Positions 1 to 46,444 of a stretch of 64,000 nt of DNA are shown piece after piece; positions within the stretch are counted from its first letter, which is position 1; each line of letters opens with the position of its first letter. The notes beneath the pieces are model-generated. The model saw only the letters and a program-made list of their open reading frames with translations, searched no databases and was not told the origin of the DNA. The stretch comes from Deltaproteobacteria bacterium (lineage in GTDB: Bacteria > Myxococcota > Kuafuiibacteriia > Kuafuiibacteriales > Kuafuiibacteriaceae): positions 1 to 64,000 of the forward strand of contig JAVJQW010000033.1 in the NCBI GenBank assembly GCA_040218735.1. Direction: 5' to 3'. A program made the position numbers and the translations under genes.

Positions 1-287
1 TGCAGCTCGCCGGTCGCGATCATCTGGAAGACCTCGGGCACCCGCCGCGCCGCGCGCACCACGGCGACGCGCCGGCACGCCTGGTCCTCGGTCAGCCCGA
101 GCCCCTCGACACAGAACCGAAACAGCGAGCTGAAGCCCCGCTCCACGTAGAGCTTGCGCCGCTCGATCTCCGCCATGAACCGGAGCGCCTGCACACCGCT
201 ATTCAGCTCCGCTCGAAGCGCTTCGCGAAGTCCGCTCAGCAGATCGTTCCGGGTCATGCCAGACAGGTTGCAAGCGTTCGGGCTCAT
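1..287 (-). CDS. HNH endonuclease family protein, N-terminal part (runs off window edge); paralog of 43710..44702
   Basis: Not in the ORF track. Manual translation from ATG at 287 gives MSPNACNLSGMTRNDLLSGLREALRAELNSGVQALRFMAEIERRKLYVERGFSSLFRFCVEGLGLTEDQACRRVAVVRAARRVPEVFQMIATGEL, about 73/95 identical to the start of the 43710 ORF. Confidence 0.9.
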   Translation of the reverse strand, partial: MSPNACNLSGMTRNDLLSGLREALRAELNSGVQALRFMAEIERRKLYVERGFSSLFRFCVEGLGLTEDQACRRVAVVRAARRVPEVFQMIATGEL

Positions 288-470
288 GCATCGAAGGTAT
301 CATCGAGCCCTCGACACGCGATTCGGCACGGATCGACCAGCACGGCCCGCGAATCGCGAGGACGCGCAAGACTGCCCGTCAGCGCCCGAAGACGGGGCCA
401 AGCTCGAAAACTTCGAAACGGACTGCGTTCGTCGAGCAGATGGCCCGGACAGGGCCTTTGATTCCGTCAA
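288..470 (-). repeat. Conserved 183-nt upstream block of HNH element, copy 1 (candidate ncRNA or element end)
   Basis: Reverse complement aligns without gaps to 43527..43709 (122/183 by hand). Both begin TTGACGGA exactly 183 nt before the ATG. Confidence 0.85.
294..302 (-). promoter_or_regulatory. Extended -10 promoter (TGaTACCTT), leaderless HNH mRNA
   Basis: TGnTAnnnT lies 6 nt before the ATG, in the same position as TGaTACGAT in copy 2. No Shine-Dalgarno. Confidence 0.6.
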
Positions 471-807
471 CCCCCAAGAGAGAAAAGGAAGCCTCCCCCG
501 CAACTCAACTTGCGCGACCGGTCTTGTGAAACGCGTCGAAGGCGGCGTGGGGCACTCGCCTGCGAGGCCGCGAAGATCCATCTGGGGATGGCCGCGCCGT
601 GAGCGCTACATGGGGAGCATGGCGAATGCCGCCGACCATCGAGCGGAGCCAACCGCCGTCCTCCTGCTTACATGGAGCGCGGACCGCGCGGTCCGGCGGG
701 GCACTCCAGCGTCGGGCGATAGTTCCAAGGTGAGTCGGGCGCGTCATGCCCCGCCTACGGCGTTCCGCGCCGGCCAGATCCGCTAAGTCAACGGCATTGC
801 GGTTAGC

Positions 808-1662
808 TCAGAACCTCACCCCGGTCTCCAGCGCGAGGTACGGCGACACGACCCCCCGGCGCAGCGGCTCCACCGCATCGAAGAACTCCGGGAGCTCCAC
901 CGCCAGCGTGCCGCCCTGAATCCAGGCGCCGGCGGCGAGCCGCAGGTCCACGCGGGACAGCGCGAACCCGACCCACCCGGTCGCTCGCCCCGCGAGCTGC
1001 CAGTCCGTCGTCTGCTCGGGGGGACCGCGCCCGCCCGGAAAGATCGCGACGGCCTCCACGCGGTCGTGCGCGACACCGATCCCGCCCGCGAGCCCGACCT
1101 GGAGCTCGCCGAGCCGAAAGAGCCCTACGTCGACCTCCGCGATGAGCGACAGCGTGTGCGGATCGGCTTCGATCGACTCGGACGCGACGCCGCAACACCA
1201 CCGCCGCCACCCGGCGCGCGCGCCGATCCGGATCCCGCCGAGGTCGAAGGACATCGCGACGGACACCCCGGGCATCGGCGTGAACGGGCTGCCCCAAGAC
1301 ACGCCTTCCAGCGCAGCGGAAGCGCGGAGTCGCTTCGGCGCCGGGGGCTCGGGAGGCTCAGGGGGCGGTGTCCACCGATCCATCGCATCGACGAGCAGCA
1401 GCGCAGCGACCCGTGTCGCGGCGTCCCGATCCGTCGCGTCGATCGTGCGGCGCTCGAGGACCGAGGTGCCCTCGACGATCTCGAGCCGCCAGCTCGCCCC
1501 CTCGGGCAGCACCACGAGCGCGAGATCTGCGCCTTCGTCTCGCCACGCGACCTCGCCGACCTCACGCGCTACGCGCGACCGAATCGCCTCCGTCGTAGAC
1601 GAGGTCGCGACGACCGAGACCGTGGGGGACGCGGCGATCAGGCTCAGGAGGACGCCCCACAT
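808..1662 (-). CDS. Exported hypothetical protein with probable C-terminal beta-barrel
   Basis: Signal-like start MWGVLLSLIAA with GGAGG upstream, Pro-rich linker, alternating beta strands, terminal Phe (LETGVRF). Start trimmed from the ORF track. Confidence 0.7.
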   Translation of the reverse strand: MWGVLLSLIAASPTVSVVATSSTTEAIRSRVAREVGEVAWRDEGADLALVVLPEGASWRLEIVEGTSVLERRTIDATDRDAATRVAALLLVDAMDRWTPPPEPPEPPAPKRLRASAALEGVSWGSPFTPMPGVSVAMSFDLGGIRIGARAGWRRWCCGVASESIEADPHTLSLIAEVDVGLFRLGELQVGLAGGIGVAHDRVEAVAIFPGGRGPPEQTTDWQLAGRATGWVGFALSRVDLRLAAGAWIQGGTLAVELPEFFDAVEPLRRGVVSPYLALETGVRF

Positions 1663-42534: not shown

Positions 42535-43263
42535 TTGGGACGTAGCGCGGTCGTGCGGATCGGTGACGTCGGGTTTCGGATGCGGTGGATCGAGGCCGGG
42601 ACGTTCCAGATGGGATCTCCGCCGGAGGATCGGGAGGCCTTCGACCGCGAGCGACCGCAGCACGTCGTGAGGCTCTCCGAGGGGTTCTGGATCGCCGAGG
42701 CGCCCTGCGAGCAGCGGCTCTGGGAGGCGGTGATGGGGTCGAATCCCAGCCAGTTCAAGGGGGGGAGCCGGCCCGTCGAGCGGGTCTCGTGGGACGTCGT
42801 GCAGGCCTTCCTCGCCGCGACGCCCGCGGCGCTGGGGCTCCGCCTGCCGACCGAAGCGGAGTGGGAGTACGCTTGCCGCGCGGGTTCGACCGCGCCGCGC
42901 TACGGTGAGCTCGACGCCATCGCTTGGTACCGAAAGAACGCGGGCGCCGGGACCCACGCGGTGAAGGAGAAACAACCCAATGTGTGGGGCCTCTACGATA
43001 CGTTGGGCAACGTCTACGAGTGGTGTGCCGATGGCGCCGATGGCTTGGTGGGTGATCGGTACGCAGCAGGGGTCCGCGCGAATCCGGTCGGCCCGTCGGG
43101 CGAGCGCCCGGGCCGCGTCTTGCGTGGTGGCTCGTGGGACGCCGACGCGGGGTACGTCCGCGCAGCGTGCCGCTTCGCGGCCCTCCGCGACCTTCGCCGT
43201 GGCGTCGTCGGGTTCCGGCTTGCCCGAGGTCGAGCCCAGCCCAGCCCCGGCGGAGCCGGTTAG
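42535..43263 (+). CDS. FGE-sulfatase (SUMF1) domain, probably C-terminal remnant of the TIR fusion
   Basis: FQMGS, ERPQHVV, PVERVSW, RLPTEAEWEYACRAG, GLYDTLGNVYEW, RGGSW, GFRLA. Confidence 0.88.
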   Translation: MGRSAVVRIGDVGFRMRWIEAGTFQMGSPPEDREAFDRERPQHVVRLSEGFWIAEAPCEQRLWEAVMGSNPSQFKGGSRPVERVSWDVVQAFLAATPAALGLRLPTEAEWEYACRAGSTAPRYGELDAIAWYRKNAGAGTHAVKEKQPNVWGLYDTLGNVYEWCADGADGLVGDRYAAGVRANPVGPSGERPGRVLRGGSWDADAGYVRAACRFAALRDLRRGVVGFRLARGRAQPSPGGAG

Positions 43264-43492
43264 CCCCGCGGAGCGGGGCAGGGAGTGCGCGGGACGCGCC
43301 CGTGACGTGTCCTGCTGACGACACCGAAGTCGACTCCCCATGCACGTCGTTCGCGTCGCGTTCTCCGGAAACAGCGCGGAGCACTTCGGCGCCCGCATAT
43401 GCGGGATCGGCGGAGCCCGGGAAGCGCGACACGCCTCGCGGGCCCCACGCACATCGCGGTGCATCCTCCAGAGCCCGGAGACAGCGTTGCTT

Positions 43493-43516
43493 CGCACGTC
43501 CGTCGTGCGCTTTTTT
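43493..43516 (+). terminator. Rho-independent terminator-like hairpin
   Basis: CGCACG-TCCGT-CGTGCG followed by CTTTTTT, just before the conserved 183-nt block. Confidence 0.55.
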
Positions 43517-43526
43517 CATTCGAGTC

Positions 43527-43709
43527 TTGACGGATTCGGAGGCCCTGTCCGGCGATTCTCATCGACGAACGCCGTCGCATCCGAGTTTTTCTGAGTTTGT
43601 CCGGCCTTCGCGCGTTGGCGGGCCGTACGGTGCGTTCTGGTCGATATTGGGTTGTGATCCTCGACGAGCGTCGAATCGGAGCCCGAGTCCTCGATGATAC
43701 GATCGTTGC
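43527..43709 (+). repeat. Conserved 183-nt upstream block of HNH element, copy 2
   Basis: Ungapped match to the reverse complement of 288..470; ends with TGaTACGAT-N6-ATG. Confidence 0.85.
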
Positions 43710-44702
43710 ATGAGTTTGATCGACCGCAAGTTGTCTTGCATGACCCAGGACGATCTCTTGAAAGGCCTTCGAACTGCGCTGCGCGCCGAGCGCGAGAGCG
43801 GCGTTCAGGCCCTCCAATTCATGGCCGAGATCGAGCGCCGTAAACTCTACATTCCGCGAGGCTTCAGCTCCCTGTTTCGGTTCTGCGTCGAGGGCCTCGG
43901 TCTCACCGAGGACCAGGCGTGTCGGCGTGTCGCCGTCGTTCGCGCGGCGGCCCGAGTCCCCGACGTGTTGCCGCTCCTGGCGTCCGGTGAGTTGCACATG
44001 ACTGGCGTCGCCAAGCTCTCGAAGTTCATGACAGACGACAACGCGCACAGCCTCGTCGAGCAGGCGCGCAATAGATCCAAGGCCGAAGTGGAGCTGATGA
44101 TTGCGACCGAGTTCCCGGGCGCGAAGAGTACGGACGACCGCGTCGAAGCCGCGACGGCGGAGACGTTCAATTTCCGCTTCGACGGGAGCGCCGAGGCAAA
44201 GGCGCTTTTGGATCGAGCGAAGGAGCTCACGCCGCCGGGCACGGACATCGGGGAGATCTTCGAGGCCGCGCTCGCGTTGTACGTGGCGAAACTGGAAAGG
44301 CGCAAGAACGGGAGGACGAGCCGCCCGCGTTCCCTCGCTACGAACGACGCGCCGGCGGGCGCCGCATACGTTCCGGCCGCGACCCGGCGCGCAGTCGTGG
44401 AGCGCGATGGTGCACGGTGTACCTACGTCGGCTCCGACGGCCGGCGCTGCAGCGAGCGCTCGAACCTCGAATTCGATCACGTGGGCGGACGGGCGTTGGG
44501 CGGCAAGAGCATCCCCAGCGAGCTGCGATTGCTCTGTCGTTCGCACAACCTTCACGCAGCCCGCGAGGTGTTCGGCCACGAATTCGTCGACCGCAGAATC
44601 CGCGAGCGCCGATCTACCCTGACTGGTCAGGGTAGATATTCCGGACGCGCCGGCGCAGTAGAGTGCGAGCCGTCGGGGGTGCACACCCAGGGGCGGGACT
44701 GA
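43710..44702 (+). CDS. HNH endonuclease family protein (DUF222/REP13E12-like architecture)
   Basis: Helical N-domain LYIPRGFSSLFRFCVEGL; HNH domain RRAVVERDGARCTY...RC...LEFDH...GG...LRLLCRSHN; atypical codon usage. Confidence 0.9.
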   Translation: MSLIDRKLSCMTQDDLLKGLRTALRAERESGVQALQFMAEIERRKLYIPRGFSSLFRFCVEGLGLTEDQACRRVAVVRAAARVPDVLPLLASGELHMTGVAKLSKFMTDDNAHSLVEQARNRSKAEVELMIATEFPGAKSTDDRVEAATAETFNFRFDGSAEAKALLDRAKELTPPGTDIGEIFEAALALYVAKLERRKNGRTSRPRSLATNDAPAGAAYVPAATRRAVVERDGARCTYVGSDGRRCSERSNLEFDHVGGRALGGKSIPSELRLLCRSHNLHAAREVFGHEFVDRRIRERRSTLTGQGRYSGRAGAVECEPSGVHTQGRD

Positions 44703-44781
44703 GGGCGTCGATGCCCGCGTTCGAGCGTCCCCTCCACCTCGGTCATTTAGCTCGGGCGTGCCACAACCTTCGCGCAGCCGC
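44636..44781 (+). pseudogene. Decayed tandem duplicate of the HNH domain
   Basis: TTCCGGACGCG vs TTCCGGCCGCG (44371); GRRC codons in frame right after the stop; CACAACCTTCGCGCAGCC (44762) vs CACAACCTTCACGCAGCC (44544), 17/18. Confidence 0.65.
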
Positions 44782-45208
44782 GACTTGCCGACCGCAGGAT
44801 CCGAAAAGCACCGCTCTGCCGGGCCCGGTCAGGGGCGGACACTCCGGGCGAGCGGTACGCAAACACACACGTTCGTGGAGAGGTACCGCCGGTCGGCCTC
44901 TCGGATTCGTCCATGCCCGGCGTCGGCCTCGGCCACACCGGCTCATCCGGGGGTCCGGAGCGGCGCCGGTGCGCCGTGGCGACTCGTCATCCGCGCCGTA
45001 GCACCGTCGCTCCGCTCATGACGCGGCGCGGGCCAAACCCCTTCCCGTCACCAGCCGGCGAACCACGGGCGAACGCCGAACTAATCCGTTGCGACGGCGC
45101 TGATCCGTACGATCCGACGCACTCGCCGCGTTTCGTACCTGCGGTTCCCCAGCGTCCGCGGCACCGGCCGCCCGCAGGTCCGGCATGGCGTTGGTCCTCG
45201 AGGCCGCA

Positions 45209-46444
45209 TCATGCGCGGCCCGCGGACTCCTGCCCTCGGATCACCCCCAGCGCCACCCAGAACACCAGCCCCACCGTCGCGTGATGCAGCGCGAAGTGTG
45301 TCAGGCCCACGACGAATACCACCACCAGGGTCGACAGCGCCCAGCGCGCGAGGTGCGCGTCGGCTCCTTGCCCTCGCCCCAACGAGCGCGCGTTTCGCAC
45401 GGCGATCCACAGCGCGCCGAAGAACATCATCGAGAAGCCGAACAGCCCCACGATCCCCGTCTCCGCCAACACCTGCAGGAACTGGTTGTGGGGCGACGTG
45501 TGGGTCACACGCGCGAGGTTCGCCGGCATGTGCGGGCCGACGACGCTGCGGTAGACGCCGTGGCCGGCGCCGAAGATCGGGTAGGCCTTCGCGACCTCCA
45601 CGCCCGCGGACATCATCGCCTTGCGGATGCCGGCGTCCTTCGTGAGCGACGACGTCACGCGTTCGCCCTGCGGTGACGCCAGCACCAGCACCACCGTCAC
45701 CACGCCCACCGCGGCGAAGGCCAAGATCGTGCGCAGGCGAACGCGGATCAGACCGAAGGTCACGGCCAACCCGGCGACCAACGCCACGAGCGCCATGCGC
45801 GCGTACGCGAACAGGACGCCAGCGCCGCTGATCACCAACGCGCCGCCGGCCAACAGCCGCCACTTTCGATCCAGCTTCCGATCGATCACCAGCGGCACCA
45901 GCATCACCAGCACCACGGCGCCGACGTGCGCGAGCTTCAGCCGGTTGTAGAACAGCCCGCTCGCGGCGCGAGTGATGCGCGGCCACCCCGGCGTCCAGAT
46001 CTGTCCCGACCGGGGGTTGCTCAACAGGTACGGGTCGAGCGGCAGCTCGCCGACCACGCGCTGCAACAGGCCGTAGGCCGCGTTGATCGTGAACGCCAAA
46101 CCAAACGCCAATGCCACGCGCCCCAACACCCGCGGCGGCGCCTTCGCGATCGTGAAGCCGACCAGCAGGGCGACCGCTTGGATCGGGCGGGTGAGATCCG
46201 TCGAAGACGCCTCACCCTCGAACGACAGGTGCCCCACGCACCCCGCCAACGCCCAGATCAGGATCCCCAGCTCGACGAAGCCCGGTCGGTACCCGCGCAA
46301 TGCCCCCGCCGCGAACGCCACCACGATCGCGACGACACACAGGATCTGCGCCGGTCCCTCGAACAGGGCGAGCATGAACACAAACCCGATCTGCGCCGCG
46401 GGGAGCGCCCGGGCGGCGGTTTCGGACAGACCAGACGAGCGCAC
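45209..46444 (-). CDS. O-antigen ligase family protein
   Basis: RAASGLFYNR, YARMA, PIFGAGHG, PHNQFLQVLAETGIVG. Confidence 0.9.
   Translation of the reverse strand: MRSSGLSETAARALPAAQIGFVFMLALFEGPAQILCVVAIVVAFAAGALRGYRPGFVELGILIWALAGCVGHLSFEGEASSTDLTRPIQAVALLVGFTIAKAPPRVLGRVALAFGLAFTINAAYGLLQRVVGELPLDPYLLSNPRSGQIWTPGWPRITRAASGLFYNRLKLAHVGAVVLVMLVPLVIDRKLDRKWRLLAGGALVISGAGVLFAYARMALVALVAGLAVTFGLIRVRLRTILAFAAVGVVTVVLVLASPQGERVTSSLTKDAGIRKAMMSAGVEVAKAYPIFGAGHGVYRSVVGPHMPANLARVTHTSPHNQFLQVLAETGIVGLFGFSMMFFGALWIAVRNARSLGRGQGADAHLARWALSTLVVVFVVGLTHFALHHATVGLVFWVALGVIRGQESAGRA

Follow-up and report, generated by a model that had tools for sequence, protein, structure and literature searches.

A repeated HNH gene of a myxobacterium as probable cargo of a transposase-less IS4-type cassette

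Two HNH genes and their constrained leader

Two open reading frames for HNH proteins lie in opposite orientation within the window, the 64,000-nucleotide stretch of DNA analysed here (Table 1). Their identity, put at about 77% in a preliminary description of this DNA, was recomputed as 73 of 95 amino acids, and the 183 nucleotides preceding each ATG form a gapless alignment, identical at exactly the 122 of 183 positions reported there, random expectation from base composition being 27%. The same description counted just two paralogs, but a check of the genome gave about 30 copies (50 tblastn matches), with 40 of 140 contig ends falling inside the repeated element. The gene unit is thus a repeated one, represented in the window by a typical copy at positions 1-799 and by an old and divergent copy at 43527-44702.

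Table 1. Features of the two window copies (positions are those of the window)
Feature	Position	Strand	Remark
Copy 1 ORF, first 95 codons of the cassette HNH ORF	3..287	minus	truncated by contig start
Copy 1 leader, 183 nt	288..470	minus	
Copy 1, left arm of cassette	471..799	minus	87 nt of the reference missing
Copy 1 21-nt terminal inverted repeat, IS4-subgroup type, CAATGCCGTTGACTTAGCGGA	779..799	minus	exact pattern match
Copy 1 10-bp terminus flank with CTAA core	800..809		presumed left copy of target duplication
Unique non-coding DNA 5' of copy 2	43264..43526		no genome matches, no terminal inverted repeat
Terminator-like hairpin and T-run directly 5' of copy 2 leader	43493..43519	plus	consensus scan
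Copy 2 leader, 183 nt, TTGACGGA to last base before ATG	43527..43709	plus	
Copy 2 ORF, 330 aa, DUF222-like helical N-domain and C-terminal HNH	43710..44702	plus	
Unique non-coding DNA 3' of copy 2	44703..45208		marginal right-arm-like stretch at 45041-45109; otherwise no genome matches

The copy 2 protein scores 13.5 bits on Pfam HNH (PF01844; cut-off 21.4) and is also under the cut-off of HNH_5, while 75 of 100 family members match Pfam HNH at E≤0.01. Across 100 sequences three residues are invariant (C237, C247, H257) and four nearly so (D256, C276, H279, N280). Copy 2 carries Glu where most relatives have the middle Asn. DUF222 (PF02720) is matched at E≤0.01 by eight of 100 relatives (best 4.1e-6) and by the copy 2 protein not at all at E≤10. 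An AF2 model (pLDDT 82.7) has a helical N-domain, and a Foldseek search of the PDB returned weak McrA/HNH and ParB/SopB matches only (best E 0.041), those to ParB/SopB-like folds not being significant (E>0.3); PADLOC matched no family. The earlier statement that the protein is not IscB was borne out, since it reaches 22.5 bits on NCBIfam guided_IscB (cut-off 175) and the match covers residues 225-286, the HNH part, alone.

The ORF is under purifying selection, single-copy variants included. For 380 copy pairs dN was 0.049 and dS 0.237, and the singleton variants comprised 112 nonsynonymous, 124 synonymous and one stop, which with a neutral N:S ratio of 2.99 gives an omega of ∼0.30. No stop interrupts the match in any of the eight copies that cover the protein almost completely (query residues 1 or 7 to 307-330), though the C17 copy has a 1-nt frameshifting deletion in the DNA alignment.

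The leader is likewise real and constrained. In a blastn search of the genome 23 of 60 HSPs started exactly at 43527, and the family leader profile matches 43527-43708 at E 2.4e-27. Divergence of copy 2 from the family is K 0.47 in the leader as against dS 0.98 in the coding sequence, about half the synonymous rate, which sets aside the neutral co-duplication that the preliminary description had named as the simple alternative. Its proposal that the block travels with the gene was sustained: a same-genus relative of 48% identity has the leader at precisely -183, and distant homologs keep a leader of fixed length, TTGAC lying between -183 and -186 at 12 of 43 loci. A T-rich stretch precedes TTGAC in family leaders and in distant leaders alike; the terminator-like site before copy 2, the one site found against a shuffle mean of 1.3, is weak taken alone.

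The further proposal, that the block is a structured cis-acting RNA, gained no support. The leader MFE z-scores were -0.08 and -0.18, RNAalifold found no consensus pairs in 12 diverse leaders, and in a set of 19 family members variable pairs are mostly disrupted, with compensation infrequent; nor did Rfam, searched with both strands of 43000-45400, give a match at E≤1. The stem previously described as compensatory appears neither in the consensus fold of the family nor in either MFE fold. A small ORF within the leader was also rejected: the TTG frame is open in the copies of this genome but stopped at codons 11-31 in nine of 17 leaders, and variation within the family has no 3-nt periodicity (0.086, 0.099 and 0.099, compared with 0.033, 0.029 and 0.097 for the coding sequence). 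A scan of 43200-45300 for sigma-70 promoters returned no sites. We infer that the leader is the promoter, operator and 5' UTR region of the gene itself rather than a structured RNA.

An IS4-type cassette at about 30 copies

The gene and leader form part of a 1.8-kb element present at ∼30 copies in the genome. With a complete copy of 1795 bp as reference (C33:76228-78022), about 60 genomic places align, individual pieces being 75-93% identical. The element consists of a 418-nt left arm, the 183-nt leader, the HNH ORF and a right arm of ∼200 nt, and it is bounded by imperfect inverted repeats of 21-27 bp. When these repeats were searched for with up to four substitutions, 39 of 40 matches ran on into left-arm or right-arm sequence, and in the consensus of the ∼39 termini positions 2-5 read AATG and positions 14-16 TTA. 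In Table 1 of PMC2266710 the IS4 subgroup has the end signature -AATR--------WTW----, a length of 1400-1650 bp and 10-13-bp direct repeats. Both ends of the cassette carry that signature, and its target duplications, 10-12 bp at nnnCTAGnnn, are within the subgroup range.

The duplications were detected by pairing flanks. Among 360 left-by-right pairs three were identical at 10/10 positions and one at 9/10, and one matched exactly over 12 bp, whereas none of 343 control pairs (left-left and right-right) rose above 8/10; the duplicated pairs take in both copies that are complete on one contig (C29 and C33). The target core reads C/T-T-A-G/A, with 26 C and 9 T, 30 T, 29 A, and 24 G and 10 A, each of 38. 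Terminal inverted repeats and target duplications, which the preliminary description had not seen, are therefore present. The upstream block is not the DNA recognition end; the true ends are IS4-type inverted repeats ∼420 nt further out and ∼200 nt beyond the stop codon. The suggested mobility of the HNH gene proved right. A deletion derivative with a single breakpoint (reference 644 joined to 1465) has at least two different right flanks, consistent with the ends being acted on in trans. Inverted repeats of IS type and a target duplication round passenger DNA, with no transposase, are what defines a mobile insertion cassette, and the element shows all of these.

Copy 1 aligns with the C33 reference in two pieces, 1-280 (83% identity) and 368-888 (89% identity). 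The partner of its presumed target duplication would fall past the contig start. The copy 2 ORF is the most divergent in the genome, and its homology with the family stops at ∼44619-44645. Upstream of it a left-arm profile built from 18 copies found no match at E≤10, and the shorter colinear matches that had been described there were not confirmed. In the seven 50-nt blocks beyond the leader the two window copies agree at 13-20 of 50 positions. Downstream, the right-arm profile gave one marginal match at 45041-45109 (E 4.9e-4, 10.5 bits, the best among 200 shuffles reaching 7.2), ∼276 nt off its expected position. No TIR-like site with up to six mismatches occurs in 43000-45400. Copy 2 thus has only leader and coding sequence in common with the family and, having no detectable ends, may never have occupied an IS4-type shell.

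The same ends on IS4 elements, and the search for a transposase

The cassette has a single ORF, that of the HNH protein, and tblastn of three IS4 transposases against it yielded nothing better than E 0.56; lacking a DDE transposase ORF with the YREK motif, it is a derivative and not an insertion sequence. Against the whole assembly (96.5% complete, 70 contigs) the same three queries gave no match at E≤1e-3, and the transposase from G135 none at E≤0.01. The only PF01609 genes in the assembly are IS701-like and IS5/IS1182-like, each single-copy and without matching ends. A repeat census for an autonomous partner covered 160 regions of ≥400 bp, 106 of them outside the HNH element, with Pfam run on 14 ORFs of the latter. 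It gave IS91-type (3), IS701-like (1) and IS5/IS1182-like (1) transposases and an HC2-like protein, and none had matching ends. A second repeat found at many contig ends, a palindrome of ∼1 kb, was rejected as a transposase since it is non-coding.

The end pattern is also multicopy elsewhere in the Myxococcota. With up to three mismatches it occurs 83 times in G248, 13 in G387, seven in G001 and six in G043, compared with 0-2 per strand in each genome for a reversed-pattern control. In two further genomes repeats of the cassette type bound elements of 1453 bp (G135) and 1434 bp (G166), and in a third (G205) a single repeat adjoins an IS4 transposase ORF. All three have one ORF of 450-457 aa with Nterm_IS4 (E 1e-27 to 1e-28) and DDE_Tnp_1 domains, whose NCBIfam transpos_IS4_1 score is 242-250 bits (cut-off 115), and all three have an nnnCTAGnnn flank beside the repeat. 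The shell is found round other contents as well: an 1823-bp element in G023 holds a RAYT-like ORF and an IS4 transposase remnant (aa 325-447), and G248 has a 190-bp MITE. Ends of this IS4 type in Myxococcota therefore carry varied cargo. The cassette shares its end signature and duplication length with the IS4 subgroup as tabulated in PMC2266710; it differs from the relatives with the same ends, which measure 1434-1453 bp and so lie inside the size range of the subgroup, in its length of 1795 bp and its want of a transposase, and homology with them is confined to the terminal 20-23 bp.

Homologs of the HNH protein occur in five of the 41 related genomes compared; matches are numerous in the present genome (46), in G036 (29) and in G003 (11). 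At 75 of 77 homolog loci in other genomes the cassette repeat is absent, and the two matches have five mismatches and are unpaired, so that such ends do not belong to the HNH family as such. Where HNH families are multicopy in G003, G036 and a Polyangiaceae MAG, no IS4 ends were seen and the boundaries are ragged; the IS4-cassette model does not account for their spread.

How the HNH gene may have become multicopy

A close parallel is MIC231 of the Bacillus cereus group, said to have been described by Chen et al. in 1999 and De Palmenaer et al. in 2004, in which IS4-family inverted repeats reportedly flank passenger DNA without a transposase. The target duplications of such cassettes are said to span about one helix turn, and a cognate transposase is presumed to move them in trans. 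The present cassette likewise has IS4-family repeats round a transposase-less passenger, duplications of about a helix turn and presumed movement in trans. It differs in that its ends are of the IS4 subgroup and those of MIC231 of the IS231 subgroup, in its myxobacterial host, whose assembly yielded no cognate transposase, and in its ∼30 copies of one fixed cargo, the DUF222-like HNH gene with its leader, kept under purifying selection.

We consider it probable that the repeated HNH gene and leader are cargo of a non-autonomous, MIC-like IS4 cassette, presumably moved in trans. The IS4-family ends and target duplications make hitch-hiking, not an RNA partner, the most likely means of spread. 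An IS4-family DDE transposase supplied in trans would have moved the cassette by cut-and-paste, as presumed for MIC231 and MITEs, and this helper may since have been lost or may lie in unassembled sequence. Several observations count against this explanation: searches of the assembly yielded no IS4-family transposase, homology with IS4 elements stops at the termini, copy 2 shows no ends, the multicopy HNH families of other genomes do not fit the model, and purifying selection is unexpected for a mere passenger in dead copies.

A second possibility, which we think quite unlikely, is that an IS4 transposase moves the shell and the HNH unit is kept because it aids persistence or spread of the cassette. 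The nuclease might, for example, cut empty CTAG or donor sites, whereupon repair would copy the cassette back, a role like that of TnpB or IscB for IS200/605 and IS607 but guided by protein. Besides selection on ∼30 cargo copies, singletons included, the intact ORF and constrained leader that copy 2 retains without ends, and the helical N-domain with its faint resemblance to ParB/SopB-like folds, would fit such a role. Against it, selection could also reflect gene conversion or a host-level function, no PADLOC family was matched, and no empty site or polymorphism was found: the C29 insertion is present in 4/4 other metagenome runs checked, whose contigs cover both of its junctions with no joint across the element.

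Very unlikely, in our view, is an autonomous transposon in which the HNH protein recognizes the repeats, cuts the target with a 10-12-nt stagger and moves its own element; it would then represent a transposase of a new class. In its favour, each element has one ORF, under selection and, in the eight near-complete matches, free of stops as described above, no other transposase with matching ends was found in the assembly, and the homologs are patchy and multicopy. However, the ends, the CTAG-centred target and the duplication length are common to IS4 DDE elements in G135, G166, G205 and G043, the same ends bound unrelated cargo and MITEs, and they are absent from nearly all HNH-homolog loci elsewhere. 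We know of no HNH enzyme that acts as a transposase, and none turned up in the papers found on HNH endonucleases in insertion sequences.

Scarcely credible is the RNA-associated nuclease first proposed, in which the upstream block would encode a structured RNA partner of the HNH protein, comparable to the omega RNA (HEARO) of IscB. In its favour, the leader is conserved beyond neutrality and of fixed length across distant homologs. Against it, the fold statistics are null, Rfam has no match, the protein has no RuvC part, and the block, at ∼420 nt from the end of the element, is unable to read a guide from the flank.

Elements of the IS200/605 type are not known to have DDE-type inverted repeats and target duplications. 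The cassette differs from ISC/IscB elements in having both, and it has neither a RuvC domain nor a structured RNA or Rfam match; what it shares with IscB/omega RNA and with the nuclease-only ISC transposons, as a passage of PMC4810608 presents them, is being a multicopy, transposase-less, nuclease-only element with an HNH domain. A likeness to the REP13E12/DUF222-HNH genes of mycobacteria is that these too are multicopy, with a helical N-domain followed by HNH (as outlined in part of PMC10589994). The present copies differ in lying in an identifiable IS4-type shell with duplications, and in the want of a DUF222 match in copy 2. Among the papers found on DUF222-HNH, REP13E12 and HNH in insertion sequences, as distinct from supplements that possibly hold element lists, none was found to report HNH genes in IS4-type cassettes.

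In conclusion, an attractive but unsupported idea of an RNA-associated HNH system gives way to a concrete and testable reading, the IS4 cassette, which provides one worked answer to how DUF222-like HNH genes turn multicopy. An unlikely but broader view is that the DUF222-like HNH gene and its fixed-length leader are a selfish nuclease module that repeatedly settles in transposase-less IS shells and is selected for promoting retention or copying of the cassette. If true, TnpB and IscB would have in such a module a counterpart guided by protein, and multicopy DUF222-HNH genes, long without explanation, would gain a mechanism.

Copies of the cassette and their layout

Searching the whole genome by tblastn for further copies of the HNH gene, of which the window (bases 1-64000 of contig C52) had shown two, we obtained 50 matches (E<=0.001). 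Most have 78-86% identity, and contig ends hold many of them; in this assembly of 11.6 Mb (70 contigs, ∼69% G+C) the element occupies 40 of the 140 contig ends. Blastn of window positions 42901-45400 against the genome gave 60 HSPs, 23 of which begin exactly at 43527 (TTGACGGA) and ∼19 of which stop at 44619, within the annotated ORF of copy 2; the remaining copies resemble one another far more than they do copy 2. A complete copy on contig C33 served as reference, and ∼60 genomic places match it at 75-93% identity per piece. It comprises a left arm, the 183-nt leader directly before the HNH ATG, a DUF222-like HNH ORF and a right arm (see table). Two copies, on contigs C17 and C21, differ in having long arrays of tandemly repeated 9-11 nt units in place of the outermost 250-300 nt of their left arm.

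The resemblance described between the two window loci holds: 73 of the 95 residues common to both ORFs are identical, as are 122 of the 183 nt before each ATG in an ungapped alignment (composition expectation 27%). Beyond the leader, in seven 50-nt blocks further upstream, identity is only 13-20/50 per block. Copy 1 (window 1-799) is a typical cassette member. Copy 2 matches the reference at 77% identity, restricted to leader and CDS, and a TIR search and an arm-profile search detected neither ends nor arms there, though ORF and leader are intact; it represents either a cassette of great age that has since decayed or the gene unit copied on its own. Its neighbours are an FGE-sulfatase-domain gene, with paralogs on contig C69, and a Wzy_C O-antigen-ligase-like gene.

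Features of the cassette, the window copies and other repeats in the assembly
Feature	Location	Strand	Remark
Complete reference copy	C33:76228-78022		1795 bp
Left arm	reference 1-418		
Leader	reference 419-601		
HNH ORF	reference 602 or 632 to ∼1591		
Right arm	ORF end to reference 1795		
Copy 1 ORF, truncated	window 3-287	-	start of contig C52
Copy 2 ORF	window 43710-44702	+	330 aa
FGE-sulfatase-domain gene	window 42535-43263	+	E 1.1e-35
Wzy_C O-antigen-ligase-like gene	window 45209-46444	-	E 2.4e-18
Copies with tandem arrays	C17:146042-147534; C21:192068-193554		
∼85-nt repeat, examples	C57:1630-1745; C14:778-940; C1:140-280		
∼1-kb palindrome, examples	C64:127063-128039 (locus L033); C60:260610-261706; C58:471048-471797		
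IS91-family genes	C9:628100-635100; C42:9400-11700		three genes

Termini, target duplications and the IS4 subgroup

The preliminary description saw no terminal inverted repeats or target duplication, which the cassette family contradicts, having inverted-repeat ends and matching 10-12 bp flanks. The cassette opens with CAATGCCGTTSACTTAGCGGA and closes with an imperfect reverse complement of it; at <=4 substitutions this end has 40 matches in the genome, 39 of which continue into left-arm or right-arm sequence, leaving 1 stray. We identified 25 left and 24 right termini and used 20 and 18, respectively, in the duplication test, excluding those that were offset or degenerate (left, on C18, C21, C35, C39 and C67; right, C14-53384, C17-431563, C21-193554, C39-72222, C46-429 and C57-99703). 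Comparing each left with each right 10-nt flank (360 pairs), we found three pairs identical at 10/10, one at 9/10 and one sharing 12 bp exactly; the best of 343 control pairs (left-left and right-right) reached 8/10. The matching pairs include both copies that are complete within one contig (C29, C33); the others bridge contig ends (C32 with C45, C58 with C53, C6 with C5) and are paired by flank identity alone, the C6/C5 pair being at odds with internal structure, since a deletion derivative is present at one contig end and absent at the other.

The flanks conform to the consensus nnn-(C/T)TA(G/A)-nCn. The assembly also holds an ∼85-nt repeat with CTAG at both borders (56 blastn matches), and cassettes on C4, C14, C32, C5, C46 and C50 are inserted exactly at such a border, which makes this repeat a supplier of preferred targets. 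In four other metagenome runs with close relatives, contigs span both junctions of the C29 copy, and loose ends reveal additional insertion sites with CTAG-type flanks; summed element depth there is ∼50-100 times that of the flank, a depth that is not a copy number.

These ends agree position by position with those listed for the IS4 subgroup in Table 1 of PMC2266710 (-AATR--------WTW----; size 1400-1650 bp), and the duplications agree with the direct repeats of 10-13 bp given there. Scanning 401 Myxococcota genomes at <=3 mismatches, we counted 39 ends in the assembly itself, 83 in G248, 13 in G387, 7 in the same-genus genome G001, 6 in G043 and 5 in G275, against 0-2 per strand for the reversed pattern. 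Ends of identical type enclose elements of 1453 bp in G135 and 1434 bp in G166, and one adjoins an ORF in G205; each of these elements is filled by one ORF of 450-457 aa with Nterm_IS4 and DDE_Tnp_1 domains that reaches 242-250 bits against the NCBIfam model transpos_IS4_1, whose cut-off is 115, and nnnCTAGnnn flanks recur at all three. In G043 this transposase, at 55% identity, adjoins the ends. The likeness of IS4 elements elsewhere to the HNH cassette is limited to the 20-23 bp termini.

The same ends also carry other cargo. An 1823-bp element in G023 (C90:75912-77734; L153:313-2135), whose flanks lack a matching duplication, contains an ORF resembling RAYT (42 bits on REP_Tyr_transpos, under the cut-off of 80) and a remnant of an IS4 transposase C-terminus (aa 325-447). 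In G248, a 4.0-Mb genome of the same phylum, they bound at least one 190-bp MITE (L157:2309-2498); the G135 query found no IS4 transposase in this 91% complete genome despite its 83 ends, which suggests a large population of IS4 derivatives that are non-autonomous. Another IS4-type end in G248 precedes a 632-aa ORF without a Pfam match.

The proposed mobility of the HNH gene is borne out by ∼60 matching places, inverted-repeat ends and target duplications, and the element is best read as a non-autonomous, MIC-like (transposase-less) cassette of the IS4 subgroup whose cargo is the leader together with the DUF222-like HNH gene.

Candidate transposase partners

A deletion derivative in which reference position 644 is fused to 1465 at a single breakpoint was seen beside at least two distinct right flanks (on C5 and C57) and as one left part on C49, as expected if the ends were acted upon in trans. 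Within the assembly, tblastn with three IS4 transposases gave zero matches at E<=1e-3, the G135 transposase gave zero at E<=0.01, and a genome-wide repeat census found no further high-copy coding repeat; at 96.5% completeness and 4.65% contamination, this does not prove that the organism lacks an IS4 transposase. A PF01609 search found two single-copy genes, one IS701-like (DDE_5) and one IS5/IS1182-like (DUF772 plus DDE_Tnp_1_6), which we rejected as partners because the ends of neither match. The only other multi-copy transposase in the census is of the IS91 family (Y2_Tnp, Zn_Tnp_IS91). Many contig ends also carry a non-coding palindrome of ∼1 kb with two inverted ∼400-nt arms (17-18 megablast matches), in which we found no long ORF whose fold was recognisable.

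The leader and the HNH cargo

The reading of the leader as an RNA partner of the nuclease is unsupported by fold, covariation or Rfam signal. MFE z-scores of the leader lie close to zero (-0.08 and -0.18), compensated pairs are nearly absent from the family consensus fold, RNAalifold on 12 diverse leaders gives 0 pairs, and an Rfam search of both strands over window 43000-45400 found no match at E<=1. A small ORF inside it was considered and rejected. Conservation of the block exceeds what neutral co-duplication would leave: between copy 2 and the family, leader K is 0.47, about half the dS of 0.98, whereas the regions outside it cannot be aligned. Over this depth of divergence the leader is therefore under constraint. 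This constraint is moderate, since within the family the leader varies like third codon positions (0.095 vs 0.097) and on a par with the arms (K ∼0.16 vs dS 0.24).

The single homolog in G001 (48% amino acid identity) has the same block, starting TTGACGGA, at exactly -183 (nhmmer E 2.2e-12), and among 43 more distant loci (21-53% identity) TTGAC stands 183-186 nt ahead of the predicted start in 12; a second island, TCGAAA...GCRTGnTA, ∼12-30 nt 5′ of the ATG, is common to many of them. A weak scan placed a terminator-like hairpin and T-run ahead of the block. We infer that the leader comprises the promoter, operator and 5′ UTR region of the HNH gene itself. At two Polyangiaceae MAG loci (L071 and L094) the HNH leader block (GACAGGTTTTTGGCGTCC...) stands twice in tandem 5′ of the gene, and belongs there to two copies of another HNH family.

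The copy 2 protein falls below Pfam gathering level (HNH 13.5 bits, HNH_5 16.1 bits), and among this protein and 99 representatives 75 match HNH, 60 HNH_5, 12 RuvA_C and 8 DUF222 at E<=0.01. Invariant residues are Cys237, Cys247 and His257; the near-invariant ones are Asp256, Cys276, His279 and Asn280. The AF2 model (pLDDT 82.7) has a helical N-domain followed by an HNH fold; Foldseek with this model returned weak McrA and ParB/SopB matches and nothing stronger. The family is very large (16,318 clusters at E<=1e-3; 1,576 at E<=1e-30), patchily distributed and frequently multicopy; of 41 related genomes, 5 have homologs (E<=1e-10). An IS4-type end is absent near 75 of the 77 homolog loci in other genomes, the other two having unpaired matches with 5 mismatches; the shell is therefore lineage-specific and the HNH gene is not.

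Across 380 pairs of cargo ORFs, dN is 0.049 and dS 0.237. Variants present in at least two copies number 59 nonsynonymous and 130 synonymous (ω∼0.15, from a neutral N:S expectation of 2.99), and singletons 112 and 124 with 1 stop (ω∼0.30); four cassette copies carry frameshifting deletions and a few fragments carry stops. The cargo ORF is under purifying selection, unlike a passive passenger, which should drift in immobile copies. Such selection may reflect a cargo that helps the cassette, a role at the level of the host, or gene conversion.
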